Positions 1 through 35,690 of a DNA stretch of 64,000 nt are shown one piece after another. Position 1 is the first letter of the stretch. Every line of letters begins with the position of its first letter. The notes beneath the pieces are model-generated. The model saw nothing but the letters and a program-made list of their open reading frames with translations, made no database searches and was not told the DNA's origin. A program made the position numbers and the translations under genes. This DNA comes from Nitrosopumilaceae archaeon (GTDB lineage: Archaea; Thermoproteota; Nitrososphaeria; Nitrososphaerales; Nitrosopumilaceae): assembly GCA_965214835.1 (NCBI GenBank), contig CBDCCK010000002.1, forward strand, positions 32,001 through 96,000, given 5' to 3'.

Positions 1-62
1 CAGACCTGGCATCAGATGCCCCATGCAAGCTCTACAAGGAGCACGCAAAGTCGCCGTCTGCA

Positions 63-2348
63 ATGGCATCACTTGCCGCGTCCTCAGACATAAAGACGTA
101 CGAGTCTGACATACGCGCATACGAGAACTATCTGTATGATCACTCTTTGATTTGCGGATGCCACTATAGATTCACCTCCGGCAACAGCAACGGCAGTAAC
201 AGTCACCTCCTCTCACCAGTAGATACCCAGGTTACTCCTGCAATCGGCGACTCCCTTGGCAAGATAATGTCAAATCTGGAATCAGAGCCCAAGCAGTACA
301 GACAGCACATACTGATGTGGGCCAGGCTGCTCAGCGAGTCCGTCCCGGACATGCGCCGCGCTGCAGTCGACATAGAGATCTCGATGGACGGACGACAATC
401 GCCGGACATGGAGGGCGTGCCGCACCGCGTCACGGCAATCGGGATACACGGGAGCGACATTGCCGTATCATACGTGCTTGATCCCGGATGCGATAATAAC
501 AACAGCGGCCGCCGGATCATAACTGAGAATGCCGTAGGTAATGACGGTGACGGCAAGTCTACGGCGCAAGTCATCCGGTATTCCAGCGAGGCGCAGATGA
601 TATCTGATGCAATAGCACGGTTGTCTGAATACCCGATCATACTCACGTACTATGGCGACGAGTTTGACCTGCCGTACCTGTACCGGCGCGCATCAAAGAT
701 CGGGGCGGGTCTTGACGGCCTGCTGGTGCGCTCGGGCGGCAGCACGTGCACCACTGCCAAGTCCATACACCTTGATCTGTACCGCTTTCTCAAGCAGGCA
801 TCAATCCAGAATTACGCGTTCAGCCACAGGTATTCTGAGTTCTCGCTTGATGCAGTGTGTCGCGCGCTTTTAGGCGAGGAGAAGACAGGCAGCGGCTCGC
901 AGACAGACTCGATGGATATAGATACGCTTGCCGCATACTGCCACCATGACGCGTACCTGACTTACAGGCTTACCACGTTTGCAGACAACATACTGCTGCA
1001 GCTGATGGTAATGATATCGCGCATATCAAAGCTGCCGCTTGATATCGTGTGCCGCACCGGAGTCTCCACCTGGATCAAGAGCATGTTGTATTATGAGCAC
1101 AGGCAGACTGGCGCAGTCATCCCGCGCGCCGACGAGCTGCAGGAGCGCGTCGGGGAGACTGCAGACGATGCCATAATGGCAGGCAAAAAGTACCGGGGCG
1201 GGCTGGTCCTGAAACCGGAGCCGGGCGTGCACTTTGGCGTTACGGTAATGGACTTTGCAAGCCTGTATCCCAGTATCATCAAGGTAAAGAACGTCTCGTA
1301 TGAGACAATCCGGTGCGTTCATGAGGAGTGCCGGGGCAACATCGTTCCTGGCACGCACCACTGGTCGTGCACAAAAAAGATGGGGATGCTTGCTGGTCTG
1401 GTCGGCTCACTCAAGGAGTTGCGCGTATCGCACTTCAAGCCGCTTGCCAGTGCTACTGGTAATGATATCACGGAGACTGAGCGCAGCCGCTATGACATCA
1501 TCGCCCAGGCCCTCAAGGTAATACTGAATGCCGCCTCTGGCGCAATGGGGTTCGAGTCGTTTCCGCTTTATTTTCTGCCGACCGCAGAGGTCATAACATC
1601 AAGCGGAAGGCAGGCCATAGCAGACGTTGCAGACAGGTGTCGCGAGCTGGGAGTCGGCGTCCTGTACGGGGATACTGACTCTGTATTTGTGAAATGCTCT
1701 GCCGAAGAGACGCTGATGGAGGTCATGCAGTATGCAGCTGATGCCCACCGCGTCGACCTCGAGATAGACAAGCAGTACAGGTATGTCGTGCTCAGCGACC
1801 GCAAAAAAAATTACTTTGGAGTCACCACGTCAGGAAAGGTCGACGTCAAGGGGCTTGCAGGCAAAAAGTCAAACACGCCGGCATGGGTCCGCTCCGTATT
1901 TTCCGGCATACTTGATACCGTTTCGCGCGTCTCCACACATGAGGAGTTTGATGCCGCAAAATCAGACGTCCAGCAGAAGATACGCGATGCGGTGGGATGC
2001 CTATATGACAATACGGTTCCTGTAGACAGCCTTGCTTACAACGTAAAAATGTCGCGCGCGACCGGCTCGTACACAAAGTCCATGCCGCAGCACGTCCGCG
2101 CGGCAAAAAGGCTGGAGGAGGCCACCGGCACCTCCGTCAGCCCCGGCGACACGATCAGGTACGTAAAGACCCAGACCGGGGAGCACGTCGCGCCCGTCGA
2201 GCTTGCACACATTGCCAGCATAGACCGCGCAAAGTATGTCGAGTGCCTCTCCTCCGTTCTGGCACCGGTCATAGAGCCAATGGATATGGACATGGACGTC
2301 ATACTCGGACATGGTAAACAGATCGCACTGGAGAGGTACTTCCAATGA
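63..2348 (+). CDS. polB: Family B DNA polymerase (archaeal PolB1-like), probably 5'-truncated by the window edge
   Basis: Exo I DIE, exo II YYGDEFDLPYL, exo III YCHHDA, motif A DFASLYPSII, motif B KVILNAASG, motif C YGDTDS, KKNYFG and a C-terminal PIP-like box QIALERYF. The frame stays open upstream to position 3. Confidence 0.97.
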   Translation: MASLAASSDIKTYESDIRAYENYLYDHSLICGCHYRFTSGNSNGSNSHLLSPVDTQVTPAIGDSLGKIMSNLESEPKQYRQHILMWARLLSESVPDMRRAAVDIEISMDGRQSPDMEGVPHRVTAIGIHGSDIAVSYVLDPGCDNNNSGRRIITENAVGNDGDGKSTAQVIRYSSEAQMISDAIARLSEYPIILTYYGDEFDLPYLYRRASKIGAGLDGLLVRSGGSTCTTAKSIHLDLYRFLKQASIQNYAFSHRYSEFSLDAVCRALLGEEKTGSGSQTDSMDIDTLAAYCHHDAYLTYRLTTFADNILLQLMVMISRISKLPLDIVCRTGVSTWIKSMLYYEHRQTGAVIPRADELQERVGETADDAIMAGKKYRGGLVLKPEPGVHFGVTVMDFASLYPSIIKVKNVSYETIRCVHEECRGNIVPGTHHWSCTKKMGMLAGLVGSLKELRVSHFKPLASATGNDITETERSRYDIIAQALKVILNAASGAMGFESFPLYFLPTAEVITSSGRQAIADVADRCRELGVGVLYGDTDSVFVKCSAEETLMEVMQYAADAHRVDLEIDKQYRYVVLSDRKKNYFGVTTSGKVDVKGLAGKKSNTPAWVRSVFSGILDTVSRVSTHEEFDAAKSDVQQKIRDAVGCLYDNTVPVDSLAYNVKMSRATGSYTKSMPQHVRAAKRLEEATGTSVSPGDTIRYVKTQTGEHVAPVELAHIASIDRAKYVECLSSVLAPVIEPMDMDMDVILGHGKQIALERYFQ

Positions 2349-2439
2349 GCCAGTATGTGATCTGCGTCAAAAATCGCAGCAGACTGCCGCATCCTGGACG
2401 CAGCGTGCCTGTCCCGGCTGAACAGGCCACAAGCCCTGG

Positions 2440-3722
2440 AAATGTGGCAATATTGCCACATTTGTGGAGTGGTAAAGTCGTCAGATTCCGTGGAAAATGT
2501 GGCAAATTGCCACATTTGGGTCTGGCCTCCACAAAACCGTGGAAAATGTGGCAATATTGCCACATTTGGGTAGCAATCTCCAGAATGCAGTCCAGAACCC
2601 GCTCTAGGAGGCCAGAAAATGTGGCAATATTGCCACATTCAGACTGTATGGCCACGGTTACGCGCCTTGGCCGCCTGCAAGACGCCAGAAAATGTGGCAA
2701 ATTGCCACATTCAGGGGTCATATCCAAAGCAGGCAAGACCGATACACACAGGAAAATGTGGCAAATTGCCACATTCAGACTGCCTTGCGCCGGAGGTAAA
2801 CTTGTGCCAGAATCGGCAAAAATGTGGCAAATTGCCACATTTGCATCCGGCCTGCCTGCAAGCCTTGAGAAATGTGGCAATATTGCCACATTCTGGCAAA
2901 GTCGCCTTTATCGTTCTGTAAAATGTGGCAAATTGCCACATTCTGACACCGGCGATAGCCTGAAGAATCCCCTAAAATGTGGCAATATTGCCACATTTGC
3001 ATCCGGCCTGCCTGCAAGCCTTGAGAAATGTGGCAAATTGCCACATTCTGACACCGGCGGTAGCCTGAAGAATCCCCTAAAATGTGGCAATATTGCCACA
3101 TTTGCATCCGGCCTGCCTGCAAGCCTTGAGAAATGTGGCAAATTGCCACATTCTGACACCGGCGGTAGCCTGAAGAATCCCCTAAAATGTGGCAATATTG
3201 CCACATTCTGGCAGCCGTTACATGATTGTGAGATCAGGTCGTGTAAAATGTGGCAAATTGCCACATTTGAGAGGCGGCAGGACTGCCCCGGAACCACTGC
3301 GGAATCCTCAAAATGTGGCAATATTGCCACATTCTGGCGGCCTTTGCACCGCCGTAGGCCAATGCCTCCTCAAAGGCTCCGTAAAATGTGGCAATATTGC
3401 CACATTTGGGCTGAGGCGTGCCTGCATTGGAGTCAGACCTCTCCCAGAGGGTCAGAAAATGTGGCAATATTGCCACATTCTGGCAGGCTTGGGAAGGCAT
3501 TCAAAAAATGTGGCAAATTGCCACATTTGCGTCTGGCCTCTCTGAATCCTTGGAAAATGTGGCAATATTGCCACATTCTGGCGGCACTGTCACGGCCCGC
3601 CGCCGGATCCGCCTGCAAAGCGCTGGAAAATGTGGCAATATTGCCACATTCTGGCTGTGGTGAGCCGGCCACCTGGCCAGACACCTTGCAGAGCCTTGAA
3701 AATGTGGCAATATTGCCACATT
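2440..3722. repeat. Array of 22 palindromic repeats AAATGTGGCAA(T)ATTGCCACATT(T/C) with variable 25-50 bp spacers
   Basis: Counted 22 copies directly. The 24-bp form AAATGTGGCAATATTGCCACATTT is a perfect palindrome. Two spacers recur about three times each in a 105-bp unit (about 2840-3200). Confidence 0.97.
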
Positions 3723-3737
3723 CTACCCCCTCCTGCC

Positions 3738-4130
3738 TGTTCCAAAGTTCCAGAGAATCTCAATTCCATTTTCAGGCACAAATGTTCCAAAGTTCCAGAG
3801 AATTCGAATTCCATTTTTGCCTGTTCCAAAGTTCCAGAGGATCCCAATTCCATTTTCAGGCACAAATGTTCCAAAGTTCCAGAGAATTCGAATTCCATTT
3901 TTGCCTGTTCCAAAGTTCCAGAGGATCCCAATTCCATTTTCAGGCACAAATGTTCCAAAGTTCCAGAGAATTCGAATTCCATTTTTGCCTGTTCCAAAGT
4001 TCCAGAGGATCCCAATTCCATTTTCAGGCACAAATGTTCCAAAGTTCCAGAGAATTCGAATTCCATTTTTGCCTGTTCCAAAGTTCCAGAGAATTCGAAT
4101 TCCATTTTGGGGGTGTTCCAAAGTTCCAGA
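3738..4130. repeat. Tandem array of 10 TGTTCCAAAGTTCCAGA motifs in alternating 45/39-bp units (84-bp super-period)
   Basis: Motif starts at 3738, 3783, 3822, 3867, 3906, 3951, 3990, 4035, 4074 and 4114. Confidence 0.97.
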
Positions 4131-4266
4131 TGGGGAGTGCCTGCTTAGGGAGCCGGAGTCATGAACAGGGAAGAGCGAAGGATGATCCGCGAGGAAATCA
4201 GGCATCTCAGGGCGCAGAAAAGGAGATCGAGGCTCATATCAGACGGAAACTGGAGGATCTGAAAAA

Positions 4267-4452
4267 ATGAAATCCGATCTGAAAAAGGCATCAGAAGAAG
4301 TGACCATATCATTGGAGCATATAGCTGGCGCACTGGCATGTATTGACATGGGTGAGTTTCCGAAAATGGATGATCAACTAAAGAAACAACTACTGGAACT
4401 GTCTACGGTGGCTGCTGCGTTGGATACCATATGGGAGGAGAATGAAAAATAA
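4267..4452 (+). CDS. Small hypothetical protein
   Basis: 61-aa ORF with overlapping start/stop coupling on both sides. Confidence 0.6.
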   Translation: MKSDLKKASEEVTISLEHIAGALACIDMGEFPKMDDQLKKQLLELSTVAAALDTIWEENEK

Positions 4453-4628
4453 TGCACATGTGGAAGGTTTTGCGTCTGGACAGTGAAGGAACATGGTATC
4501 CGGACACGTTTGATAACAAGGAAAGCGCGATGAAAGGGCTGGAGCGGGAACTGACCAAGGACTTTATCCGTGTAGAGATACTGGACATAACAGTACCAGA
4601 CGACGAGGAGGTTGATGCCGATGCCTGA
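4452..4628 (+). CDS. Small hypothetical protein (MHMWKVLRLDSEG...)
   Basis: TAATG overlap with the upstream ORF; 58 aa, translated by hand. Confidence 0.55.
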   Translation: MHMWKVLRLDSEGTWYPDTFDNKESAMKGLERELTKDFIRVEILDITVPDDEEVDADA

Positions 4629-4782
4629 TCCCATCTGCGACGGCTGCGGCGAGCGATACCTTCCTGGCACCGGCCGGGAGGGATACTGCGCTGCCTGCAA
4701 GGCCGAGTTTGACCGGGATTTCGAGGCCGACATCTCCCGGGTAAAAAGAGCGATAAAGAAAGAGGTTGATGCCGATGCCTGA
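4621..4782 (+). CDS. Small Zn-finger protein (CDGC...CAAC)
   Basis: Hand translation MPDPICDGCGERYLPGTGREGYCAACKAEF...; preceded by a GAGGT ribosome-binding site. Confidence 0.6.
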   Translation: MPDPICDGCGERYLPGTGREGYCAACKAEFDRDFEADISRVKRAIKKEVDADA

Positions 4783-5980
4783 CATTCCGATTGATGACAT
4801 AGTGATTGGCACGCGCTTTCGCGGCGACGTGGGGGACATCACGCAGCTTGCCGAGTCAATCAGCGATATAGGCCTGCTACACCCAATAGTCCTTGATTCA
4901 GACCACAGACTCATTGCCGGACTGCGCCGCATCGAGGCATACAAGCATCTGGGGCTTGCGAGCATACCATACCATGCCGTCGGCAACAACAAGGACAGCC
5001 CCGAATGTGAAATCCATGAAAACAGCCTCCGAAAATCATTTGGCATAAGCGAGGTCGTCTCGATATTCAACCATGTCAAGGAGTCAAAAAAGCAAAAGCC
5101 TGAAAAGGAAAAAGATGATGCGGTGACTGCCGAAACCCCCGGTGACGCACCGGGTAAAAACGGCAAAAATAACGGCCGCACCCGCGACGTGGTATCTGCC
5201 ATTACAGGATACAGCCCCCGGCAGGTGCAAAAGATGTCGGATCTGGTAAAGCGCGCCGGCCAAAAGCCAGAGTACTGCAAGCTGTTGCAGGACGTCGAAT
5301 CAGGCAAAAAATCAGTAAACACCGCACACAAGATAGCCATGCGCGAGGAGCGCGCGATGCCAAAGGCCGAGATGCCCGACGGCATATACGACGTGATTTT
5401 GTGCGACGTGCCAATCCGGTATGATACCACCACGCGTTCGGACGGGGCTGCCGACCACTATTCCATGATGACAGTCGACGAGTTGTGTGAGCTTCAGGTG
5501 CCGGCTGCGGCCAACGCCGTCATCTTCTTCTGGATGTCTCCATCGATAATGTATGATACCGTCCCCCGGCAGGTTGCCATAACAGACGAGGAGGGCGGCG
5601 GCATGATCCAGGGAACGGTTGATGTCCCCGTGTACAAGGCCATACTGGATTCATGGGGATTCACCCGTGTAAAGGGGGAGTTCAGCTGGGACAAGGAGAA
5701 GATGGGCAGCGGGTATATCGTGCGCGGCCAGCACGAGAACTGCATCATTGCGCACCGCGGCAGGATGCCGGCGCCTGCCGAGTCATTCCCGTCTGTCATC
5801 CGCGCGCCCCGCCGGCAGTTTTCGCGCAAGCCCGACGAGATGTACGGTATCATAGAGAGGATGTATCCGGGCAGGCACAAATATCTGGAGCTGTTTGCGC
5901 GACAGCAGCACAGCCCCGCATGGGACACGTACGGGAACCAGACGGCTCACTTTGAGGAGGGGGGTGCCGGCGATGAGTGA
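4766..5980 (+). CDS. ParB/Srx N-terminal domain fused to an MT-A70-like (N6-adenine) methyltransferase domain
   Basis: ParB box (LAESISDIGLLHPIVL, IAGLRRIEA, ENSLRK). MT-A70 features: YDVILCDVP, HYSMMT, FFW, W.K...G.GY..RGQHE, SRKP, LELFAR. The catalytic DPPW motif reads DVPI. Confidence 0.88.
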   Translation: MMPMPDIPIDDIVIGTRFRGDVGDITQLAESISDIGLLHPIVLDSDHRLIAGLRRIEAYKHLGLASIPYHAVGNNKDSPECEIHENSLRKSFGISEVVSIFNHVKESKKQKPEKEKDDAVTAETPGDAPGKNGKNNGRTRDVVSAITGYSPRQVQKMSDLVKRAGQKPEYCKLLQDVESGKKSVNTAHKIAMREERAMPKAEMPDGIYDVILCDVPIRYDTTTRSDGAADHYSMMTVDELCELQVPAAANAVIFFWMSPSIMYDTVPRQVAITDEEGGGMIQGTVDVPVYKAILDSWGFTRVKGEFSWDKEKMGSGYIVRGQHENCIIAHRGRMPAPAESFPSVIRAPRRQFSRKPDEMYGIIERMYPGRHKYLELFARQQHSPAWDTYGNQTAHFEEGGAGDE

Positions 5981-6917
5981 TCTTGAAGGTGTCGCATCGC
6001 GCATAACAGATGAGACCCCCATGATCTCCCTTGAGCACACCGGCGAGATCCTCGCGTATGTCGACGGCGCATACGTGCCCGGCGGCGAGATCATAGTCGA
6101 GCAGTCCTGCGAGGAGCTGATACCCGACTGCACGACTGAGGCCCGCGAATCCGTCCTGGAGATCGTCCGCCGCGCCACCGTGACCCCGCGCATGTGCTGC
6201 GATCCCCCCGGCCTCCTGGTGTGCTCAAACGGCCTGCTCGATCTGCACACCATGAGCATCGAGTCCCACTCGCCGCTTGTCCGGTGCAGGACAAAGCTTG
6301 ACGTGGAATACGACCCGTGCGCCAGGGCGCCGCAGTACACGGACATGATATACCGGATTCTGCCTGACGGGCCCTCCCGCGAGGCCCTGCACCGGGCCTT
6401 TGGTTCTGCGCTGCTCAGGGCGTCCTGTCCCCCTCCCGCCCCCGCCCTGCTGCTTGGCGGCGCTGCAGGCGTCGAGGGGCACGACCTGGTGCTCGGAATC
6501 ATGGAGCGCGTACTCGGCCCCAGGAATGTCGCGCACCTCAGGCCGTCAGACGTCATGCACCACCCGTACATGAGATCCCAGCTTGACGGCAGGATTGCCA
6601 GCATATCAAGGTATAACACGGTCTCGGAGCTGCTGCACGTCGCACACGGAAGAGGCATCCTTGCCTCGCCTGCGCTTGCCGTGCAGCAAAAGGGCGCAGG
6701 CCAGTACCTCATACCAAACCACGCCCGCCTGTTTCTCTCATGTAATGACCCGCGCCCGCCTGCGCGCATCCTGTCCCATTTTGGCTGCGTGATACGATTT
6801 TCTGACTGCGGCGACTGCGGGGCGGACTCTGATTTGGATTCCCTGCTTGCCGGCCCCGAAAGATCCGGCATATTGAACCTGCTCATCGAGGCGGCCGGCG
6901 GAGGTGCCATACAGTGA
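5973..6917 (+). CDS. Degenerate D5-like SF3 helicase paralogue (Walker A lost)
   Basis: Collinear with the downstream helicase (EILAYVDGAYVPGGE, NGLLDL, NHARLFLSCN), but GEGANGKS is replaced by GAAGVEGHD. Confidence 0.8.
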   Translation: MSDLEGVASRITDETPMISLEHTGEILAYVDGAYVPGGEIIVEQSCEELIPDCTTEARESVLEIVRRATVTPRMCCDPPGLLVCSNGLLDLHTMSIESHSPLVRCRTKLDVEYDPCARAPQYTDMIYRILPDGPSREALHRAFGSALLRASCPPPAPALLLGGAAGVEGHDLVLGIMERVLGPRNVAHLRPSDVMHHPYMRSQLDGRIASISRYNTVSELLHVAHGRGILASPALAVQQKGAGQYLIPNHARLFLSCNDPRPPARILSHFGCVIRFSDCGDCGADSDLDSLLAGPERSGILNLLIEAAGGGAIQ

Positions 6918-9130
6918 GCGGCAGCACGCACGCAGAAAAGTTCGGCTGCACTGCCAGGATGATCGACGACTTTCTGCACAGGTGTGTCAGGCAGAATCAC
7001 GGGATACTGTCAGCCAGGTGCAGCGCCGGGACGCACGACATAGATCCCGAGAGGCCCGCGTACGTCTTTGCCGGCGAGACAGGCAACCTGACTGACTCGT
7101 ACTGCCACATGGCAGAGTGCTTTCTGTCCGTGCTGGATCCTGCGACGATAAGGTCCATGCATGATGGCGGCAACCGCAGTAGTAGTGGTGGTGGTAATAA
7201 CGGCGACAGGAAGACTCCTGCCGCTGCCGCTGCCGCCTCTGCGGCCCGCCGTGGAAGCGCGTCGCCCGTAAAGCGCAGGCGCGTCTCGTACCAGTGCTTT
7301 GACTGCGACAACCGCCGGGGCTCATACAAGGACTTTGAGGAGTGCCGACGCCTCCGGCACGACGTCGTCCCGTACTCGGAGGGCCCTCCGCCCCCGTCGA
7401 CGTCGCCGTCCCCCTCAGGGGATTCGGCTGCGGCAGCCGCAGCGGGTGGTGACAGGACTGCGGCTGCCGCAACAACCGCAGGTGGCGGCGGTAATGGCGA
7501 CAGGCCGACTCATACGGATCACGCGATGGCAATCATGGCAGACTATAATTTTTTGACCCTGAATGACACCCGCGAGATACTCGTGTACCGCGACGGCGTG
7601 TACGTGGCCGGCGGCGACATCGTAATAGAGGAGGAGGCAGAGCGCCGCGTCCCCGACTGCGCTACCGTCATGCGCAAGGAGATCCAGAATACCATACGGG
7701 CGCACACGTACGTTGACAGGAGGCTGTTTGATTCTGATGACTCCAAGCTGGTGGTTGAAAACGGCGTGCTTGACCTGGTTACGGGCAAGCTCGGCGCGCA
7801 CACGCCGCACGAGCCGTGCCGCATAAAGCTCAACGTCGCCTATGATCCGGACGCCCTGTCACCCCACTATGACGAATTTATGAGCCGCGTCGTCCCCGAC
7901 GAGGAGGACCGCCTCACCCTGCACGAGTTATTTGGCGCGGCGCTGTTGCGCAACTCGCCTAATCTGGAAAAGATAACGATGTGCACCGGCGAGGGCGCCA
8001 ACGGAAAGTCGACGCTGCTCGGCGTGTACAACGACATACTTGGAAACCAGAACGTGGCGCACGTCTCCATACACGACCTGATAAACCACAGGTTCATGCG
8101 CTCGAACCTTGACGGCAAGCTGGCAAACATCTATGCGGACATCAGCAACAACGAGCTGGAGCACATGGGAGTGGTAAAGTCGCTTGTCACAGGTGAGACT
8201 GTGACCGTCGAGAAAAAGGGCACCAACAGCTTTGACATTGAGAACCACGCAAAGCTCATCTTCAGTTGCAACCGCCTGCCGGAGATATCAGAAGACAGTG
8301 ATGCCATATTCAGGCGCTTTGTGATAATACCGTTTACCGTCAGGATACCCGAGGATGAGCGCAACCCGGCCCTCAAGGGAGAGCTGCTAAAGGAAAAGTC
8401 GGGGATATTCAACATACTGCTGAAATGCGCGCTGGAAGTCAGGCGCGCCGGCGCGCTGACTCACGGCGGCACAACAATGGAGACGCGCCGCGCCTGGAAG
8501 GGTATGGCCGATCCCGTCGAGGGCTTTTCTGCCGGTCATCTGTCCAGGGAGCCCGGACACAACGAGCCAAAGTCGGCCGTGTACGAGGCGTACGTGGCGT
8601 GGTGCAGCAACGCCGACCTCAAGCCCAAGACCAAGCAGGCCTTCTCTGCGCGCATGGAGCGGCTCAAGTACAGGTGGGGCAAGGCGCGCATTGACGGTAA
8701 GTCAGTCAACGCGTGGCTGGACGTCCGCTTATTTTCCGGCGAGCAGGCAGGCGATCCGACCGTGGCAGGTGGCGGTGGTGGTGATGATGATGGCATCGGT
8801 GGTGGTGATGATATCTTGCGGCCTGCGGCAGGTGGCGGTGGCAGCAGCAGTGGTAGTGGTGATGATGATAGTGGGACTGCTGACGGCAGTAGCAGTGACC
8901 GCCCCGGTGATGATTCAAAGCGATGGTCCGAGATGGTGCCCGAGTCCGAGATGGTGCCCGGCACCACATACTATGAGTGCCGCACGTGCGGCGCCGGCCC
9001 GTACACCGGCGGTGCCACCGGCATCGGCGGGCGCCTCATCTCCGACGTCCACCGCTCCATGGGACACGACTATGGGCCGTGTAAGGATGCAAAAAAGGAC
9101 GGGAAGGAGGATGGTGACGGCGGCACATGA
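6914..9130 (+). CDS. D5/P4-family SF3 DNA helicase with N- and C-terminal Zn-finger-like motifs
   Basis: D5_N region, Walker A GEGANGKST, KLIFSCNRLP, AIFRRF, winged-helix-like C-terminal region, low-complexity Gly/Asp linkers. GTG start overlaps the upstream stop. Confidence 0.93.
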   Translation: MSGSTHAEKFGCTARMIDDFLHRCVRQNHGILSARCSAGTHDIDPERPAYVFAGETGNLTDSYCHMAECFLSVLDPATIRSMHDGGNRSSSGGGNNGDRKTPAAAAAASAARRGSASPVKRRRVSYQCFDCDNRRGSYKDFEECRRLRHDVVPYSEGPPPPSTSPSPSGDSAAAAAAGGDRTAAAATTAGGGGNGDRPTHTDHAMAIMADYNFLTLNDTREILVYRDGVYVAGGDIVIEEEAERRVPDCATVMRKEIQNTIRAHTYVDRRLFDSDDSKLVVENGVLDLVTGKLGAHTPHEPCRIKLNVAYDPDALSPHYDEFMSRVVPDEEDRLTLHELFGAALLRNSPNLEKITMCTGEGANGKSTLLGVYNDILGNQNVAHVSIHDLINHRFMRSNLDGKLANIYADISNNELEHMGVVKSLVTGETVTVEKKGTNSFDIENHAKLIFSCNRLPEISEDSDAIFRRFVIIPFTVRIPEDERNPALKGELLKEKSGIFNILLKCALEVRRAGALTHGGTTMETRRAWKGMADPVEGFSAGHLSREPGHNEPKSAVYEAYVAWCSNADLKPKTKQAFSARMERLKYRWGKARIDGKSVNAWLDVRLFSGEQAGDPTVAGGGGGDDDGIGGGDDILRPAAGGGGSSSGSGDDDSGTADGSSSDRPGDDSKRWSEMVPESEMVPGTTYYECRTCGAGPYTGGATGIGGRLISDVHRSMGHDYGPCKDAKKDGKEDGDGGT

Positions 9131-10791
9131 GTCCTCCTACTCCTGCTACTCCCCCTTCTCCACAGCTTCTCGCCTCGTTTCCCCCCGGACTCTCCCCGCG
9201 TCCGGAGCAAAAACGCATACTTGCAGACATCGGCGAGGCGCTTGCCTCGGGGTACCGCGATATCATACTGTGCGCGCCCACCGGTGTTGGCAAGAGCGCC
9301 GTGGCAGCTGCGGTCGCCCGCTCGATGGGAAGCTCGTTCGTGCTTACCGCCCAGAAGATACTCCAGGATCAGTACTCGCGCGACTTTGGCTCGTGGCTTG
9401 CCCCCGGCAAGGGCAAGGGCAACTTTCCGTGCCGCGCCCTGTACGAGGGGGTCATGTCCCGTGACGAGGCGGCATCCGACCCGTCCGTATCGTGCGCCAA
9501 CGGCGTGTGCTCGTGGCACACGCCGCAGGGAACCGCGCACTGCGAGTACAAGCCCGTCCTGGCCGAGTTCGAGCCCGGCGGTGAGTGTGGTGATGACGAC
9601 AATTGCTGCCACTATTATTCGGCAAAATATACGGCGCTTGCCTCGCCGCACTCTGTATACAACTATGCGGCATACTTTGCAATACGCGGCCAGTTTCTTC
9701 CGGACCGGCTCATCCGGAGGCAGGTCGTCATTTGTGACGAGGCCCACGAGCTTGAGGACGTGCTGGCAGAGCACGTCGGCTGCGAGATAACAAGATCGTA
9801 CCTTGCCGACGCCGACTCTGCGTTTTCCGAGTTTGAGGATGTCGATGCCGTCGAGGGTGTAACCCGCATGGTCTCGCTTCTCTGCGACAGGTACGGTGAG
9901 CGCCTGCGCAGCTCGCCGGACGGGAGGATGCAGTCCCGGCTGGAGCGCCTCTCGCTGTGCAGGTACGAGCTGGCAAACAGCCCGGGCAACGTGTCCGTAC
10001 AGGTCAACCGATATGATGACGGCCACGTGCGGTCCGTCTCTGTCCGGCCCCTGTCCGTGTCGCGGTACGCCGAGAGGTATTTGGACTCGCCGCACCGGAT
10101 CTTCATGTCTGCTACCATCCATCCGGACATGTTCTGCGGCCGCATGGGCATTGACGGGCGCGACTGCTGCTTTGTGGACGTAAAGACCGCCCCCTTTGAG
10201 GCCTCCCGCGCCCCCGTCTCCTTCTGCGACGTGGCCGCCATCAACCGCGATACCGGCGAGGACGAGTACGCCCTGCTATACGATAGGATCGACTCGATAC
10301 TGGACATGCACGGCAACCACAAGGGGTTGATACTGGTGTCTTCGGTGGATCAGTGCCGCAGCATTGCCGCCGGGCTGTCCGAACGCAACCGGGGCAGGCT
10401 GCTGCAGGTATACAACTCGGCGCCGCTTGAGCGCGACGAGACGCTGCGCCTGCATGCCGGCTCCCCCGAGCCGACGGTCCTGATATCGCCGAGCCTGTGG
10501 TACGGCGTTGACCTCCGCGGGATGCTCTCCAGGTTCTGCATAATAGCAAAGTGTCCGTTTCCGTCTCTGGCAGACAGGCGTGTCGGCGCGCTGGCAAAGG
10601 CAAGCCCCGTATGGTACCGGTATCACACACTGTGCAAGATGCTCCAGGGGATGGGGCGCAGCATACGGAGCGAGGACGACTGGGCCGACACGTATGTTCT
10701 GGACTCCAACGCCGGCAAGCTCGTGCGGCAGATGTCCGCATACGTCCCTGACGCATACGGGGAGGCGCTCTCGGAGGTAGGGGGAAGATGA
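9127..10791 (+). CDS. DinG/XPD-like SF2 helicase
   Basis: Q motif RPEQ, APTGVGKS, Cys cluster, DEAH, MSAT, QGMGRSIRSEDD. Confidence 0.93.
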   Translation: MSPPTPATPPSPQLLASFPPGLSPRPEQKRILADIGEALASGYRDIILCAPTGVGKSAVAAAVARSMGSSFVLTAQKILQDQYSRDFGSWLAPGKGKGNFPCRALYEGVMSRDEAASDPSVSCANGVCSWHTPQGTAHCEYKPVLAEFEPGGECGDDDNCCHYYSAKYTALASPHSVYNYAAYFAIRGQFLPDRLIRRQVVICDEAHELEDVLAEHVGCEITRSYLADADSAFSEFEDVDAVEGVTRMVSLLCDRYGERLRSSPDGRMQSRLERLSLCRYELANSPGNVSVQVNRYDDGHVRSVSVRPLSVSRYAERYLDSPHRIFMSATIHPDMFCGRMGIDGRDCCFVDVKTAPFEASRAPVSFCDVAAINRDTGEDEYALLYDRIDSILDMHGNHKGLILVSSVDQCRSIAAGLSERNRGRLLQVYNSAPLERDETLRLHAGSPEPTVLISPSLWYGVDLRGMLSRFCIIAKCPFPSLADRRVGALAKASPVWYRYHTLCKMLQGMGRSIRSEDDWADTYVLDSNAGKLVRQMSAYVPDAYGEALSEVGGR

Positions 10792-11864
10792 GCGGCCTGG
10801 CGCCGGCGGCGGCGGCCGCGGCTGTTTCTGCCAGGAAGCCCCCGTTCCTCCCCGGGGTCATACCCGAGACCCTCGGCAGGGGCGGGCTCACCGTCTCGGA
10901 GCTGCTGCACGGTGCATCCTGTGATGCCGTGCGCCGCGAGGCCGTAAACCGCGTGATATCGGCCGAGACGGGAAGGCAGTACTGCGCGGTAGGCGGCCCC
11001 GTCGTCATGATCGGCGGCATGACATACAGGCAGGACGTGCTGACGTATGTCGTGGCCTCGGCCATTTGTAACGTAAAGGGCGACAGGGTCCTGACAAAAA
11101 AGTTCGCGCTGTCCGAGTCCGTGACTGCCGAGCCCTTTCTTCGCGGCCACCCGAGCCCGGAGGACCTGGTATCCGAGATGGCATCCATAAAGGCGCTGCG
11201 CGACGGCGCTGAATACCGCGTTCCCGTCGCCGACTATCTTCCGCTTGCCTGCCGCATAAGCAGCATGGAATGGAAGCTGGTAAACCAGCGCGTCACCGGT
11301 GGGTACGTCATGCTTGCCAAGAGGAGGATGGTGCGGCTGGTGCGGCACGCCATGGCCGCATACGTCATTGATCAGGTCAACGGTATGTCCCTTGGGAGCA
11401 GGGATGCAGAGGCGCTTGCCGGATATGCGGCCAAGGTGGGGACCACCCACGTGTGGGCCGGCAGGAGGCCTCCTGCAGACGGCGGCCGCCTGCCCCCGTG
11501 CATCGCGCACTGCAGGCAGCAGCTGAAGGAGGGCGAGAACCTGCCCCATGTAGCCCGGTTCCTGCTTGCTTCATACCTGCTCAAGGCAGGTACCCCCGCA
11601 GACGACATTGCAGTCCTGTTTCAGACGGCCCCCGACTATAACGAGGCAGTCACGAAATACCAGATAGGCCAGATAGCGAGATCAGAGTACCTCCCCCCCA
11701 GCTGCGCCAAGGTGGAGACGGCAGGATGGTGCAGGAGGAGCGAGGCCTGTGGGAACATAGCCAACCCGATCCAGTTTGGGAGGCATGACGGCCGCGTCCT
11801 ACAAGAGGACGAAAATGACACGCCCGTCCCTGAAGAAAAAAGCATGGAGGGGGACATCCCCTGA
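10788..11864 (+). CDS. priL: Archaeal-type DNA primase large subunit
   Basis: WKLVNQRV..GYV, LPPCI, H..RFLLASYL, F..APDYNE..T.YQI, Y.PPSC, C...C..I.NP (Fe-S domain cysteines). Confidence 0.9.
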   Translation: MSGLAPAAAAAAVSARKPPFLPGVIPETLGRGGLTVSELLHGASCDAVRREAVNRVISAETGRQYCAVGGPVVMIGGMTYRQDVLTYVVASAICNVKGDRVLTKKFALSESVTAEPFLRGHPSPEDLVSEMASIKALRDGAEYRVPVADYLPLACRISSMEWKLVNQRVTGGYVMLAKRRMVRLVRHAMAAYVIDQVNGMSLGSRDAEALAGYAAKVGTTHVWAGRRPPADGGRLPPCIAHCRQQLKEGENLPHVARFLLASYLLKAGTPADDIAVLFQTAPDYNEAVTKYQIGQIARSEYLPPSCAKVETAGWCRRSEACGNIANPIQFGRHDGRVLQEDENDTPVPEEKSMEGDIP

Positions 11865-11872
11865 GAAAGTGC

Positions 11873-12214
11873 GTGTATTGCGGGGTGTGGCTGTCAGGCG
11901 GCAGCGTGCACCACGGACTTGTTGTGGACCGTGACGGGATCCGGTTCTCACAGCTTCCATCATCGGTCAGCGACGAACCATTCGAGTATTACTGCTGCCA
12001 TGCGTGCTTTACCATGAACCGCGAGAGGGTCATCGCAAGGATAAGCGGTATGGTGGGCGGCACTGCCGGCCGGAAGGGTGCGCCGCGCTGCCAGGTCTGC
12101 CGCAGGAAGATCACGGCGTATGGGCGCCACATCACCTGCTCCAAAAAATGCGCGGAAAAATATTCCGTACGGCTTGGAGGGCATGGCGGCGGCGGGGGGA
12201 GGAATTCCACATGA
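11873..12214 (+). CDS. Cys-rich hypothetical protein (CxxC, TCSKKC)
   Basis: Several CxxC motifs; coupled by ATGA to the next ORF. Confidence 0.55.
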   Translation: MYCGVWLSGGSVHHGLVVDRDGIRFSQLPSSVSDEPFEYYCCHACFTMNRERVIARISGMVGGTAGRKGAPRCQVCRRKITAYGRHITCSKKCAEKYSVRLGGHGGGGGRNST

Positions 12215-14149: not shown

Positions 14150-14660
14150 ATATGTGGCGTAACCTGGCACCCTGCGATCAGAACTTTTAACGGTTGTTCC
14201 AAAGTTCCATTGTTCCAGCGATTCCATACTGCCGTATATTTGGGGAAAATAAGGAAAAATGTCGTCTGCCACACAGCGGTGTAGAAATGCTGGAACACTG
14301 GAACTTTGGAACATTTCTCACGCCTGACGTTTGCCACACAAGGAACCTTCAGAATTTGATCACTTTGCCACAAAACGAGACTGGAACAGATTTTGGCGGA
14401 ATTCATCCCGGATCTCCGAAAAGCGTGCGGATCTCGACGTGGCAAAATACTCGTCGGAATGGATTTTGAAAATTGATCTAAATTTCGGGCTTTTTGGGAA
14501 TTTGATCTGAAATAGCTGGAACAACTCTGGAACATGGTGGAACATCCGGGTGTTTTTGGCGGATTTCGGATCGGTTTTTGCGGAATTTTTCGGAATGGAT
14601 TTGGGGGTCTGATCGCAAAAATCACCTATTTTGAGAAAAACTCTGGAACAATGGAACACA
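14150..14660. repeat. Non-coding region with scattered copies of both upstream array motifs
   Basis: TGTTCCAAAGTTCCA at 14195-14209, its reverse complement at 14299-14313, more TGGAACA copies, and TTGCCACA/GTGGCAA half-sites. Confidence 0.75.
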
Positions 14661-23789: not shown

Positions 23790-24611
23790 CTACCTGCCGA
23801 ATCCCCTTCTTGACAGATAGTCCGAGACTATCTTCTGCGCAAGCTCGCCAGGCTCCAGATTCTTCTCGCGCGACAATTTGGACAATCCCCTTGCCTGGTT
23901 TTTGGAGAACCTCAAAGAGACGTTCTGCCTTGCACGAAACGAGTTTGCAAGCCGCTGTACTTCAGAATGCTCTGCCGCACTTCCGAGCTGCTCTAATGCG
24001 TCTACATACCTCTTTTTTTGCGCATGATCATATCTGGAGATCCGTTGAATTACATCCAGTGCGTCTGACGGAACCGTAACGACCCTGCATATCCTGATGG
24101 CATCCCTCCTGGATATTGTTTTTGGGACCATCTCCCTTATCTTGTCAGGGACTGCGCCATACCCCAGGTATTCCCGGAACGTTCTGCGGGAGACACCGAG
24201 TGCCCTTGATGCTGCTGCCACCCCCATCTTTTCTGCCAGAAACTCACACGATGCGGCCATCTCGGAGGCAGACATGTCCCTTCTGTGCAGGTTCTCGATT
24301 ACCGATACTGCCTTTGCATCCTCGATATCGTGCGAGCTTTCACGGGAGAGTATCAGGACGGGAATCGTCTTGGAGCCTAACTTTCTGAGTGCCTCAAGTC
24401 GTCTCTGTCCTGCCATGAGCAGGTACGAGTTTGCGCCGTCTCTTTGCACCATCGGGGGATTCTGCAGTCCCTCCTCTCTTATGGAGCGGGCAAGCGAGTC
24501 GATGTCTGCGCGGTCCAGCGTTCTTGACTGTGCCTCCTCCCATACCGTAATGGAATCAATGGGAACCTCCTTCAGCGAGTACGCGATTGGGTTTTCCTTT
24601 ATGCCTTCCAA
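23790..24611 (-). CDS. ParB/Spo0J-like protein with C-terminal ribbon-helix-helix-like domain
   Basis: LARSIREEGLQNPP, AGQRRLEAL, IENLHRRD, central HTH, C-terminal SLRFS...L..L...IVSDYL. Confidence 0.88.
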   Translation of the reverse strand: MEGIKENPIAYSLKEVPIDSITVWEEAQSRTLDRADIDSLARSIREEGLQNPPMVQRDGANSYLLMAGQRRLEALRKLGSKTIPVLILSRESSHDIEDAKAVSVIENLHRRDMSASEMAASCEFLAEKMGVAAASRALGVSRRTFREYLGYGAVPDKIREMVPKTISRRDAIRICRVVTVPSDALDVIQRISRYDHAQKKRYVDALEQLGSAAEHSEVQRLANSFRARQNVSLRFSKNQARGLSKLSREKNLEPGELAQKIVSDYLSRRGFGR

Positions 24612-32866: not shown

Positions 32867-33000
32867 CAGAAACCGGCCTCCTTAGAGGGATGGTGTGAGA
32901 GTTGGGTTTTGGATTCGGATCTTATGCTGGGCGGTATGAGATCAAACGAACTGACTCCATAGGAATGCCTGCATCCGGGACGCATCCAATTTTCTGTATT

Positions 33001-33115
33001 GGAGTCTTGTGGAGTCTTGTGGAGTCTTGTGGAGTCTTGTGGAGTCTTGTGGAGTCTTGTGGAGTCTTGTGGAGTCTTGTGGAGTCTTGTGGAGTCTTGT
33101 GGAGTCTTGTGGAGT
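33001..33115. repeat. 10-bp perfect tandem repeat GGAGTCTTGT x11.5 upstream of mod
   Basis: Read directly from the sequence. Confidence 0.97.
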
Positions 33116-33785
33116 TATCGAGCATACTACAATGGGGGATGAAATTGTCTGACATTTTAATCTTCAAAACCATACATGAACACAACATGTGTGTGTATTA
33201 AAATCTCCCTAGCATGACAGATTACCCTCTCTCACTGCAGTACACTGGTAAATCTTCGTGGTTTTTCAGCAGGGTGTTAAGTTGGGGGTTTATAGCGGGG
33301 AGTAGATTTGAACTACTGATTTGCGGGTTATGAGCCCGCCGGGATGACTTAGCCCAAAAGCGTCTGACTTCCCCACCCCGCTGAATCATCAATTTGTTTG
33401 GGCAGTATATACTTTTTATCAAACCCTGTTATGTTTGTTTTATACAGAAATTTAGTCCAATATTTTGAGAAAAACTAATGAATACTTTGCCCTTTACCAA
33501 TCAAGAAAAACGATGAAAAAAGACCATCCCGCACAATCAGAAACCCATCCAGTGTCTTTCAAACCATTTGCCCTAGTCAACATGTATCAAACAACGTTTC
33601 AGATAAACCTGACGGCTTTTACCGTGTGATCAAGACCGTGATACACGTTGCCGGCGCCTGATTCGATCAGGGTTTTGAGAAAAACGGAGGTGGCGCCTCT
33701 CACATGCGTGCACACCAGCATCCCTCTGCCTGCAAGCGAGTCCGGACATACCTTCCGCATGGAATGAATGATCCTCATGCCATAA

Positions 33786-34508: not shown

Positions 34509-34616
34509 TTACATCCAACAGTCAGCAGGCCAAAACGCAAGCCACTCCCTCGCTCCATGACACGCCATTTCGTCAGGATGCAGTCTGACAGACAAACCGT
34601 CATGATTATGGGTTTG

Positions 34617-34687
34617 TGGACCCCCCGGGAATCGAACCCGGACCTCTCGGGTCTTAATCGAGCGTATTCCCATTATACTAGGGGCCC
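34617..34687 (-). tRNA. tRNA with AAG anticodon and alanine-type acceptor stem (G3:U70, A73)
   Basis: GGGCCCC TA GTAT-AATGGGA-ATAC G CTCGA-TTAAGAC-CCGAG AGGT CCGGG-TTCGATT-CCCGG GGGGTCC A. Full cloverleaf with an A31-C39 mismatch, short variable loop and no encoded CCA. Confidence 0.85.
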
Positions 34688-34689
34688 AC

Positions 34690-34760
34690 AAGGTTTAAAA
34701 TGCAACATTCTCTATAATCCTCGGGTCTTAATCGAGTAGTACAGCATTGTACTAGCCTTT
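34690..34760 (-). pseudogene. Degenerate tandem tRNA-like copy retaining a D-arm and an identical anticodon arm
   Basis: Minus strand TA GTAC-AATGCT-GTAC TA CTCGATTAAGACCCGAG. The 17 bp at 34720-34736 are identical to 34646-34662. Confidence 0.6.
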
Positions 34761-35690
34761 TTTTCTAATTAAAAACAACAGGAAATTCCAGCCAAACCGC
34801 CCCCAAAAGTTCAAGGCATCATACTCCCAAAAACCAGAACGCCAAATCAAGCCACACAGTCGCGGCACAGGTCCAATCCTGCCGGCAGCCATGCAGTTCC
34901 CAAAACACCAGTTCTCCCTCCCCTGGCAGGCCCATACGGTGCACATCCCCCAAACCCGCCCCATAAAATTCAAAACACAAAACCAAAAACCGCGCCGCCC
35001 TGCAAAGCAGAAAACACGCATGACACGCCGCCGTCACGCCTCTGCCATACAAGTTCAAGCTCCAGTCAAAATTCAAAACAAAAAATTAAAAATTCAAAAT
35101 TCAAAAAGGCGGGCCCTGCGCGCAAAATTTCAGCCCGGAATGAAATTAAAATTTCAAATCAAATCAAAATTAAAAAAGGCGGGGCGCTGCGCCGCCAGTC
35201 AGAACGTATTCTGAAAAAGCCAGGGCTGTAACTTTAAGGCATAGGCAATCATACAAAGTCGTAACTTTAAGTCGCAGGCACCGTCTGGCAGAAAAACGGA
35301 ACCTGCCGAAAAATGGCATCCTGATATGGAAGGCTGCAGGAAGTCACAGTCTGGCATCCGGACTGAACGGGCACAAAGTCAAAACAAGACAGGATTAGGC
35401 AGGCCTGAAGCGTCAAATTCACTGCCCGGAATCGACAGATAAAATCAAACTTTTCAATAAAAGTCAGAAATGCGGGGGGCCTCCTCAATAAAATTGTATA
35501 ATAAATTGAATTTGAAGTGAAATTTTTGAAATGAAATTTTTGAAATGAAATTGGAATTTTGAATCTGGACGGGGCGCCTGGGGGCTGCTTCCAGTGCGGT
35601 GAAGTGCATCCCGGTATGAAATCAGCCTGCAGATGCCAGGACTTTCATGCAATCCTGGGAAATAGGGGAAAGGAAAAGTCAGAAATCAAA

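Follow-up and report, generated by a model that had tools for sequence, protein, structure and literature searches.

The end of a family B DNA polymerase gene in a Nitrosopumilaceae archaeon is followed by 22 exact palindromes set apart by spacers of unequal length, which raises the question of whether this array is a CRISPR-type locus, a bank of protein-binding sites, a series of hairpins, part of a gene or a functionless satellite. The window analyzed here is a stretch of 64,000 nucleotides from contig C2 of the 3.22-Mb genome. The features needed for the argument are as follows (window positions).

1–2348, plus strand: family B DNA polymerase gene polB, starting 213 nt before the window
2345–4270, plus strand: open frame of 641 codons that spans arrays A and B
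2441–3722, no strand assigned: array A, made up of 13 palindromes of 22 bp and 9 of 21 bp, all exact, with spacers of 27 to 51 nt
2921–3235, no strand assigned: higher-order unit of 105 bp in the middle of array A, present three times (100%, 99% and 77% identity)
3734–4130, plus strand: array B, 4.5 copies of an 84-bp period made of two subunits of about 42 bp
4267–4782, plus strand: three orphan genes for small products (61, 58 and 55 aa), the third zinc-ribbon-like
4766–5980, plus strand: MT-A70 methyltransferase with an N-terminal ParB_N-like stretch (below threshold)
5964–11864, plus strand: four replication genes, encoding a D5_N protein, a D5-type SF3 primase-helicase, an XPD-like helicase and PriL
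6914–9130, plus strand: the D5-type SF3 primase-helicase
9127–10791, plus strand: the XPD-like helicase
10788–11864, plus strand: the primase large subunit PriL
23790–24611, minus strand: canonical ParB/Noc-like protein of 273 aa with N-terminal domain and HTH, a candidate binder

The genome has a second polB, to which this additional copy is 48% identical; with its end at 2348 it adjoins the array, as the initial annotation of this DNA had stated. The first two small orphans (61 and 58 aa) have no relative in 300 genomes of the family, and Pfam, PHROGs and Atlas assigned no function to the small orphan genes or to the large minus-strand genes. For the boundaries of the element, no convincing att repeat was found, and an "integrase" match scored below threshold (23.8 bits versus a Pfam cut-off of 27.1 bits). 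As part of the operon, the array region is probably transcribed and perhaps translated.

Thirteen of the 22 palindromes in array A read AATGTGGCAATATTGCCACATT, which is perfect over 22 bp, and the other nine read AATGTGGCAAATTGCCACATT, of 21 bp, with A as the central base on the plus strand in all nine. A length of 23 to 24 bp had been proposed; the palindrome is perfect at 22 bp in the 13 longer copies, but the full 24 bp is found only in 5 copies, which are followed by T. The base at -1 is A in 22 of 22 copies, the base to the right is T in 9 and C in 13, and an A-run lies directly 5' of every copy. Shuffled sequence gave no palindrome match, compared with 22 exact copies in the real sequence, and all 22 sites found genome-wide lie within array A.

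The spacers are interrelated and some are duplicated. Each 105-bp unit consists of one 21-bp site and one 22-bp site, and the two ends of the array (2494–2580 and 3505–3591) are direct copies with 85% identity. Array A has clearly expanded through the duplication of blocks of several repeats. Homologous spacers (families D4 and D10) are only 60 to 85% alike while all 22 palindromes are exact, indicating that sequence constraint acts on the palindrome alone.

The start-to-start distances reported initially (55, 49, 73, 73, 64, 66, 50, 51, 54, 51, 54, 51, 54, 61, 65, 73, 73, 49, 49, 73 and 72 bp) were reproduced exactly for the 22 repeats, and the three clusters into which they had been sorted are present. 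Two arguments for a binding platform had been built on them; of these, helical phasing proved weak and mirror symmetry found no support. At 10.5 bp, the 21 successive distances gave a mean resultant R of 0.41. The best R within 10 to 11 bp was matched by 4.6% of random spacing sets when all 21 distances were used, and this fraction rose to 32% for the 11 distinct distances left after duplicated units were collapsed, a set on which the phasing is not significant. For absolute positions, the peak at 8.15 bp (R 0.65) was higher than the one at 10.5 bp (R 0.59). The series of distances correlated with its own reverse at -0.29 (permutation P = 0.82), and the array ends are direct duplicates instead of mirror images.

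The array was not found elsewhere. In the genome contig collection the same palindrome occurred in 61 stretches, with at most four dispersed sites per stretch and no array; in the viral contig collection it occurred in 5 stretches, with a single site each and no array; and in metagenome contigs it occurred in 113 stretches, with one site apiece among the 80 listed. Neither distant blastn of 2400–4200 against phage and plasmid collections nor megablast of window positions 1–12000 against phages and plasmids gave a match. The comparison of copy number and spacing in related contigs that the initial annotation had suggested came to nothing, since a homologous array turned up in none of the collections searched. 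The outer bases of the palindrome resemble a bacterial CRP site and its core an NFI site, resemblances that we take to be coincidence.

A short palindromic repeat interspersed with spacers that differ and look non-repetitive is what array A has in common with CRISPR arrays, and some of its units share a 73-bp period with the CRISPR of the host. This period was rejected as a coincidence. The true CRISPR of the host has 148 repeats of 36 nt, 145 of its 147 spacings follow a period of 71 to 77 bp (the other two are 62 and 87 bp), and the array A repeat is unrelated to that 36-nt repeat. The spacers of array A are not near-uniform (27 to 51 nt), and they are paralogous: three are duplicated, the 105-bp unit is triplicated and the array ends are direct duplicates. 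As had been noted, no cas gene is seen near the array, the sole Cas1 match (C2:2480729) lying 2.45 Mb away beside the 148-repeat array, and no AT-rich leader, the sequence upstream of array A being the GC-rich end of polB. Rfam gave no CRISPR-DR family match. A search of the spacers against host and virus sequences, also proposed initially, returned chance-level matches of 15 to 19 nt in the genome and none in the phage and plasmid collections. Judged by its sequence, array A thus differs from CRISPR arrays in spacer uniformity, spacer independence, cas and leader association and repeat identity with the host system. The reading as a CRISPR or virus-borne mini-CRISPR is already contradicted on four defining features, in agreement with the initial view that this is not a CRISPR-type array, and we give it almost no credence.

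Array B, which directly adjoins array A, has 10 direct copies of a GTTCCA-AA-GTTCCA doublet, GTTCCAAAGTTCCA, at 3739–4128. The pattern GTTCCA-N1-4-GTTCCA occurs 17 times in the 3.22-Mb genome, compared with 3 matches for the reversed control pattern, and 16 of the 17 are in the element: 10 in array B and 6 at C2:46196–46657 (window 14196–14657). The latter region contains the following features.

14195–14313, no strand assigned: origin-like inverted repeat with 41-nt arms, 83% complementary and 37 nt apart
14267–14445, no strand assigned: array A half-sites, TGCCACA at 14267, TTGCCACA at 14331 and 14365, and GTGGCAA (reversed) at 14439
14528–14657, minus strand: two more GTTCCA doublets, reversed (14528–14543 and 14644–14657), in the same non-coding region

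Each arm of the inverted repeat has three GTTCCA hexamers, and the repeat sits in a 1-kb non-coding stretch of lower GC, 10 kb downstream of the arrays. Outside array A, TTGCCACA occurs three times in the window, twice inside the 470-bp origin-like region (binomial estimate, about 2e-4), which was delimited by the GTTCCA motif and not by the palindrome half-site. A cluster of three TTGCCACA at C2:2233243 looked like ordinary coding sequence and was discarded.

Related loci have ParB-like, D5, polB, XPD and PriL genes in common. One genome of the same genus (G001) has two doublets, which face each other as an inverted pair in the interval from the D5 helicase gene to polB. Another (G004) has 12, of which 3 occupy the D5 helicase/polB intergenic position and 5 belong to another copy of this intergenic sequence, so that motif and position beside D5/polB are conserved in both genomes. 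A third (G067) has the same architecture with a different motif. Three elements of one genus thus have inverted GTTCCA doublets, which makes these a candidate origin. Within our element, an accessory cluster that shares its motif with the origin-like region is seen in array B and, in part, in array A. The palindrome has no copy in the related elements, and viral contigs held no relatives of the locus by D5 helicase or by polB. The array had initially been proposed as a binding platform for a dimeric protein ("centromere or origin"). The GTTCCA-doublet array, its counterparts at 14.2 kb and in related elements, and the open 641-codon frame had been overlooked.

The best-ranked reading is that of a protein-binding platform tied to replication or maintenance, as first proposed. 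What the sequence establishes is the anatomy of the region, the fact that array A is unique, the motifs that the origin-like region has in common with the arrays, and an iteron conserved in related elements. We tentatively regard array A as a candidate accessory replication-control or maintenance platform bound by proteins of the element, to which we give slightly less than an even chance; protein binding, the identity of the binders and the physiological effect are what we infer from the sequence. The two arrays would make up a cis-acting repeat region of 1.7 kb, with array A as its larger half, set in the replication operon of a large integrated mobile element of an ammonia-oxidizing archaeon. 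The iterons banked in array B would be those of which the probable origin 10 kb downstream is composed, and the D5-type primase-helicase would be their probable reader. [quoted passage not shown] Array A may then offer 22 high-affinity sites for a second, probably dimeric, DNA-binding protein encoded by the element, with a half-site also in the origin. Both banks together could form an accessory replication-control or maintenance locus, which might titrate or pair with origin-bound proteins, enhance or limit initiation, or hold or segregate the excised element.

Some observations run against this platform. The 1-bp difference between the 21- and 22-bp forms shifts the half-site geometry, which a rigid dimer tolerates poorly and a hairpin easily. 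Related elements replicate without such an array, indicating that the array is not essential to this replicon type. Probable transcription, and perhaps translation, is unusual for a binding platform, the helical phasing is not significant once duplicates are collapsed, the half-site link to the origin consists of two to four short matches, and no homologous array was found with which spacing and copy number could be compared.

Array A could also be a satellite, selfish or neutral, whose palindromes promoted its expansion through unequal crossing-over and which does nothing for the element. A simple k-mer scan found 40 interspersed or tandem arrays in the genome, many of them perfect, and array A grew by block duplication and is confined to one element. 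We consider this improbable: no substitution is found in the 22 palindromes, whereas co-duplicated spacers are at 60 to 85% identity; the array stands in a non-random place, inside a replication operon and next to an iteron bank; its half-site is found again in the origin-like region; and the frame is preserved. A similarly low probability is given to a canonical ParABS-type centromere bound by one of the two proteins that the initial annotation had named, the ParB at 23.8 kb and the ParB_N-MT-A70 protein. The former is a replicon-encoded ParB with HTH (23790–24611), and its N-terminal and HTH domains align to solved ParB/Noc structures with E-values of 1e-13 to 1e-8. The sopC locus of the F plasmid is also an array of inverted repeats bound by SopB, as outlined in PMC3177203, and the two TFIIB-like genes in the element recall the TFIIB that is often beside ParB in Thaumarchaeal integrated elements, as outlined in PMC6563490. 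However, this ParB gene is 20 kb from the array and not adjacent to it. A search with PF13614 alone found no ParA in the examined part of the element and two matches in the genome (C2:237736 and C2:2648576). The other seven ParB_N loci of the genome have no perfect palindrome (arms of at least 9 bp, at least 18 bp in total) within 4 kb, and relatives with ParB-like genes have no array. The link to the MT-A70 protein is weak, its ParB_N match being below the Pfam cut-off (22.9 versus 26.3 bits; 25.4 bits in a second run, also below) and its solved relatives being METTL3-type methyltransferases.

Alternatively, array A may act through hairpins instead of duplex sites, as a recognized, processed or structural signal that works without Cas; this is unlikely, though less so than a satellite or a canonical centromere. 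Each site would form a 9-bp stem with a loop of 3 or 4 nt, either as RNA transcribed from the operon or as DNA that is single-stranded while being replicated, and the 21- and 22-bp forms share the stem and differ only in the loop. Predicted energies are -11.5 and -12.3 kcal/mol for RNA (z-scores, -3.75 and -4.55) and -8.9 kcal/mol for DNA in both forms. The units are polar, in both the central A and the preceding A-run, and the array is co-directional with a tight operon in which no promoter or terminator signal stands out. Yet the palindrome folds alike on both strands, so that RNA is not singled out, and the polarity can be explained by inheritance through unit duplication. Rfam, searched over array A with gathering and E-value thresholds, gave nothing real: no family was above threshold, and the only hits were long-hairpin miRNA models (14 to 28 bits versus gathering thresholds of 65 to 197). 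The fold of the whole array as RNA was uninformative, the palindromes pairing among themselves. The openness of the 641-codon frame is not explained by the preferred platform reading. The frame overlaps its neighbors at both ends, with polB through ATGA, in which its own ATG meets the polB stop, and with the next gene through that gene's start and its own stop. The Shine-Dalgarno-like GGAGAGGT precedes the ATG by 8 nt, where other genes of the operon have GGAGG. The frame could be a genuine gene, either with a functional, repetitive 641-aa product or with translation itself being needed, as it would be if ribosomes have to stay on the operon mRNA and melt the hairpins. This is doubtful, about as much as a satellite. 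In its favor are the two overlaps and the GGAGAGGT before the ATG; moreover, all 30 plus-strand stop triplets of array A avoid one frame, and the chance of any plus frame being open across array A is 0.002 to 0.006 with duplicated units collapsed. A unit permutation gave P = 0.0002, a value inflated by the duplicates. The open reading frame is also listed as a predicted protein in a protein collection. On the other side, the palindrome is read in all three frames (NVAILPH, KCG.. and KMWQ..), with exact conservation on the DNA and not on the peptide level, and the codon-usage log-odds of the spacers is -0.05 per codon versus +0.31 to +0.35 in the neighbors. The gene model used here did not call the frame, Pfam gave no match, and the near-length band of 5.8 billion protein clusters held no homologue but itself.

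A bolder combination of these elements is an oriP-like split replicon, with a dyad replicator at 14.2 kb and a bank of 22 palindromes and 10 doublets 10 kb away, inside a stop-free open reading frame kept by selection. We regard it as speculative and give it about the same low standing as the hairpins. The stop-free frame would let ribosomes cross 32 protein-binding or hairpin-forming sites in the replication operon, and a cis-element array and a translated "bridging" frame would occupy the same DNA. We know of no description of such an overlap in archaeal mobile elements.

To our knowledge, where thaumarchaeal mobile elements start replication and what maintains them is essentially uncharted, and genetic tools for ammonia-oxidizing archaea are currently lacking. 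The locus offers a candidate origin, a candidate accessory bank of the same iterons and a unique 22-site array with an exactly defined site. If binding is demonstrated, the locus would be a compact model in which to study the control or maintenance of the excised form of an archaeal integrated element, and its parts (origin, initiator and maintenance array) could serve in vectors for ammonia-oxidizing archaea. A further question, prompted by the open frame, is whether operons use translation as a means of getting across structured cis-elements.

Several known systems resemble parts of this locus. The lambda origin has four iterons inside the O gene, which encodes a conserved functional protein. 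As in lambda, where the frame is translated, cis-acting binding sites lie here inside an open frame of a replication operon; unlike in lambda, 32 sites fill a 641-codon frame that has neither gene-like codon usage nor, in the near-length band, a homologue. According to PMC3177203, sopC has 12 repeats, each 43 bp long, and SopB binds a 16-bp inverted repeat within every one of them. Array A is likewise a tandem many-site array (22 versus 12) of short inverted repeats, and the mobile replicon that bears it codes for a protein of the ParB family. The sopC repeats, however, are uniform 43-bp direct repeats beside sopAB, whereas array A has spacers of 27 to 51 nt, a ParB 20 kb off and no PF13614 ParA, and its palindrome is unrelated to the sopC sequence and has two lengths.

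In the oriP of EBV, as summarized in PMC2654434, a family of repeats (FR) and a dyad symmetry element (DS) are both bound by EBNA1. The large bank of palindromic sites is a maintenance element and a barrier to forks or transcription, and the separate small dyad with the same site is the replicator. This two-part layout is matched by the 22 sites of array A and the 2 to 4 half-sites at the 14.2-kb dyad. The oriP parts are about 1 kb apart. The replicon of a eukaryotic virus, oriP involves tethering to host chromatin, whereas the element here is archaeal with parts 10 kb apart, and its dyad region has half-sites only and no full palindrome; the analogy is one of working and not of homology.

Second iteron clusters serve as control loci in P1, where incA acts by handcuffing, and in P4, where ori and crr are bound by the alpha primase-helicase. 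A winged-helix domain and kinship with D5/SF3 proteins are outlined for P4 alpha in PMC2777425. The comparison applies to array B, the sites of array A being palindromes and not direct iterons. Compared with P1 and P4, the element here is archaeal, carries PolB and PriL and has more copies, and what it has in common with those systems is a replication gene block for a D5-type SF3 primase-helicase with a cluster of one and the same iteron on either side, here array B and the origin-like region.

The window, positions 32001-96000, lies on a 3.21-Mb contig (C2; GC 52.6%) of a two-contig genome whose completeness is given as 99.95%. Its palindrome array (array A, 2441 to 3722) contains 22 copies, all exact, in two forms.

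22-bp form, AATGTGGCAATATTGCCACATT, 13 copies in array A
21-bp form, AATGTGGCAAATTGCCACATT, 9 copies in array A

A whole-genome search found no copy outside array A, and 100 shuffles gave no match. The start-to-start distances in the initial annotation were reproduced exactly. The palindrome of 23 to 24 bp that it described reaches 24 bp in 5 copies, but the others stop short of that length. The preceding base is A in every copy and the following base is T in 9 and C in 13, and the central base of the 21-mers is A on the + strand in 9/9, indicating that the array has polarity despite its palindromic core.

Array A has expanded through direct duplication. It contains three copies of a 105-bp unit (identities of 100%, 99% and 77%) and six 73-bp units that are 60 to 77% alike, and positions 2494 to 2580 are 85% identical to 3505 to 3591. 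None of the 22 palindromes carries a substitution, whereas the co-duplicated spacers have diverged, which argues for constraint or for palindrome-specific homogenisation. The three length classes of the spacing do exist, and since the array grew by direct duplication, they largely mirror descent. The helical phasing read into them is possible, with a weak signal. Taken over the 21 successive distances between centres, the mean resultant R was 0.41 at 10.5 bp; of the random spacing sets, 4.6% attained the best value within 10 to 11 bp, 0.45, and the corresponding fraction was 32% when only the 11 distinct distances were used. With absolute positions, R was higher at 8.15 bp (0.65) than at 10.5 bp (0.59). 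The supposed mirror symmetry was not supported when the series was compared with its own reverse (r = -0.29, permutation p 0.82).

Two CRISPR arrays are present elsewhere in the genome.

C2:2482178-2492954, true CRISPR array, 148 repeats of 36 nt, period 71 to 77 bp (about 73) in all but two spacings
C2:135893-136367, second CRISPR array, 7 copies of a variant repeat, orientation opposite to the 148-repeat array

The initial annotation's view that array A is not a CRISPR was borne out. Its spacers, 27 to 51 nt long, are paralogous and partly duplicated, and had no significant match in the genome, 50,697 phage records or 72,556 plasmid records when the proposed check against host and virus sequences was run. 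A search of array A with Rfam returned nothing real, and the sole Cas1 match of the genome (C2:2480729) lies directly upstream of the 148-repeat array. A CRISPR identity is contradicted on these grounds. The 147 true CRISPR spacers gave one 17-nt chance match to the element and nothing more. Because the spacer at C2:2485136 matches the other contig, C1 (13,188 bp), at about 6366 to 6401 in 36/36 bases, C1 is probably an extrachromosomal plasmid or virus targeted by the host's own CRISPR.

The host encodes an archaeal AmoA (E 1.4e-115), and matches of the D5-type helicase include Nitrosopumilaceae spindle-shaped viruses (28 to 31% identity), from which we infer that the host is an ammonia-oxidising archaeon. 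Array A lies in a tightly packed operon of co-directional genes, ordered here from a codon-usage gene model and Pfam.

1 to 3, + strand, ribonucleotide reductase, two TFIIB-like genes, polB
4, + strand, 1.9-kb gap without a called gene, holding array A and the adjoining iteron array (array B)
5 to 6, + strand, three small orphan genes, then MT-A70 with a sub-threshold ParB_N match
7 to 10, + strand, D5_N protein, D5/SF3 primase-helicase, XPD-like helicase, PriL

The operon is followed by about 1 kb of non-coding DNA (14.0 to 15.0 kb) and a long run of minus-strand genes, including restriction-modification systems and a canonical ParB at 23.8 kb. PolB was found in 59/61 genomes searched; the element carries an additional copy, which is 48% identical to the genome's other polB and to the best matches in relatives. 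A tyrosine-recombinase match upstream was weak (23.8 bits, cut-off 27.1), and an att-repeat search found no element boundaries. Integrated elements of thaumarchaea that carry PolB, and also TFIIB adjoining ParB, are already described (PMC6563490). The comparison with related loci proposed in the initial annotation found no palindrome array, and single palindromes at most, at chance frequency; two small genes tested just downstream of the arrays had no relative in 300 family genomes. Array A and these two orphan genes are thus specific to this element.

A zinc-ribbon ORF of 55/56 aa and the MT-A70 gene share the start MMPMPD (sites 4612-4782 and 4766-4790), and the ORFs preceding them both end with EVDADA, indicating that a short segment was duplicated at these gene junctions. 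The first members of two large minus-strand gene pairs (40174-45137, 721+774 aa; C2:101100-107124, 715+740 aa) match one PHROG of unknown function (phrog_23723), which suggests a duplicated module. A further, incomplete copy of a tRNA segment, CTCGGGTCTTAATCGAG, follows tRNA-Leu(aag) at a distance of about 50 nt (34616-34760) and resembles an att-type remnant. Next to it are 1.3 kb of A-rich sequence (GC 0.47, AT skew +0.21) with several tandem repeats (35066-35964), and the region is possibly a junction of two integrated elements. ARAGORN called two unusually long tRNA-Thr genes, possibly intron-bearing (33293-33382, 90 nt; 55939-56034, 96 nt); Rfam at the gathering threshold confirmed only tRNA-Leu at 34617-34687 and neither tRNA-Thr call. 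Perfect tandem repeats occur at 33000-33115 (TGGAGTCTTG x 11.6) and, within the minus-strand gene 38390-38878, at 38417-38572 (42-bp unit, a multiple of 3, x 3.7); the whole genome has about 40 such arrays.

Array B directly adjoins array A (3734-4130; 84-bp period x 4.5, 98% matches) and contains 10 direct copies of GTTCCAAAGTTCCA. Of 17 GTTCCA-N1-4-GTTCCA doublets genome-wide, 10 are in array B, 6 at 14196-14657 and 1 elsewhere; the reversed pattern, used as a control, gave 3 matches. The doublets at 14195-14313 make a 41-nt inverted repeat (83% complementary, arms 37 nt apart) with a folding z of -6.8 as single-stranded DNA.

Related replication modules were sought with the D5 helicase, which had a match at E <= 1e-10 in 25/301 family genomes, and three (G001, G004 and G067) were examined. 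They have ParB-like, D5, polB, XPD and PriL genes in common, in the order D5, intergenic region, polB. Both genomic doublets of G001 (2/2) form an inverted pair in this intergenic region, adjoining a tandem array of the same motif (17 bp x 4.2). In G004, 3/12 doublets are in the intergenic region, as inverted pairs flanking an AT-rich stretch, and 5/12 are in a second copy of the origin-like sequence. This nearly identical copy (G004:C1:346947-347231) includes the 3' end of the D5 gene, and tblastn found no replication protein gene within 10 kb of it. G067 shows the same architecture with GGACATAG as its motif; the doublet count of a further genome, G003, was at control level. Another G004 contig carries a 1-kb interspersed array (G004:C4, locus L224:6760-7830) of ACTAAA(A)C runs alternating with spacers of about 15 to 20 nt. 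This array, which is unexplained and non-CRISPR and comes from the same genus, has two blocks that differ in their spacer families.

Residues 601-738, the C-terminal region of D5, show recognisable conservation with G001 (E 1e-8) and G004 (E 7e-7) but barely any with G067 (E 0.02), although the G067 helicase core is the most similar (51%), which lends weak support to a C-terminus that reads the iteron. Iteron reading by winged-helix domains is proposed for P4 alpha and pRN1 ORF904 (PMC2777425), and PMC4234260 places the pRN1 origin 3' of its replication gene. With the shared doublets and the related elements, these points mark the 14.2-kb region, on comparative grounds, as a probable origin, and array B may be read as a second bank of its iterons.

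Array A also has a possible counterpart there. Its 8-mer half-site TTGCCACA occurs outside the array 3 times in the window (about 2 expected), and 2/3 of these copies, at 14331 and 14365, are in the origin-like region, which was delimited independently by the GTTCCA motif. A binomial estimate puts the chance of 2/3 falling within 470 of about 62,700 bp at about 2e-4. Nearby are TGCCACA at 14267 and the reverse GTGGCAA at 14439.

A 641-codon frame (2345-4270) covers both arrays, overlapping the polB stop with its ATG and, with its own stop, the start of the next gene, which carries its own GGAGGA; GGAGAGGT, 8 nt upstream of the ATG, resembles the GGAGG preceding most operon genes. All + strand stop triplets in array A (30/30) avoid this frame. 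With duplicated units collapsed, the chance of any open + frame across array A was 0.002 (spacer-jitter simulation) or 0.006 (analytical); unit permutation gave 0.0002 but treats duplicates as independent. The palindrome is read in all three frames, codon usage of the spacers scored -0.05 per codon versus +0.31 to +0.35 in neighbouring genes, and the ORF had no Pfam family and no homologue among protein clusters in a near-length band. Selection for translation across the arrays is possible; it is unlikely that the 641-aa product itself is the point.

We tentatively favour the arrays as a binding platform on duplex DNA, in which a dimeric protein of the element would occupy array A and the initiator array B, and which, together with the origin, would serve for accessory control or maintenance. 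The main rival, a function of array A through hairpins, is consistent with the 9-bp stem shared by the 21-bp and 22-bp forms, which differ in loop size only; we consider it rather unlikely. A strict ParABS centromere is more doubtful still, as a PF13614 search found no ParA in the element and the ParB gene, at 23.8 kb, is distant from array A. In its working, the duplex-DNA platform would resemble P1 incA and P4 crr. It may likewise be likened to F sopC (PMC3177203) and to EBV FR/DS (PMC2654434).
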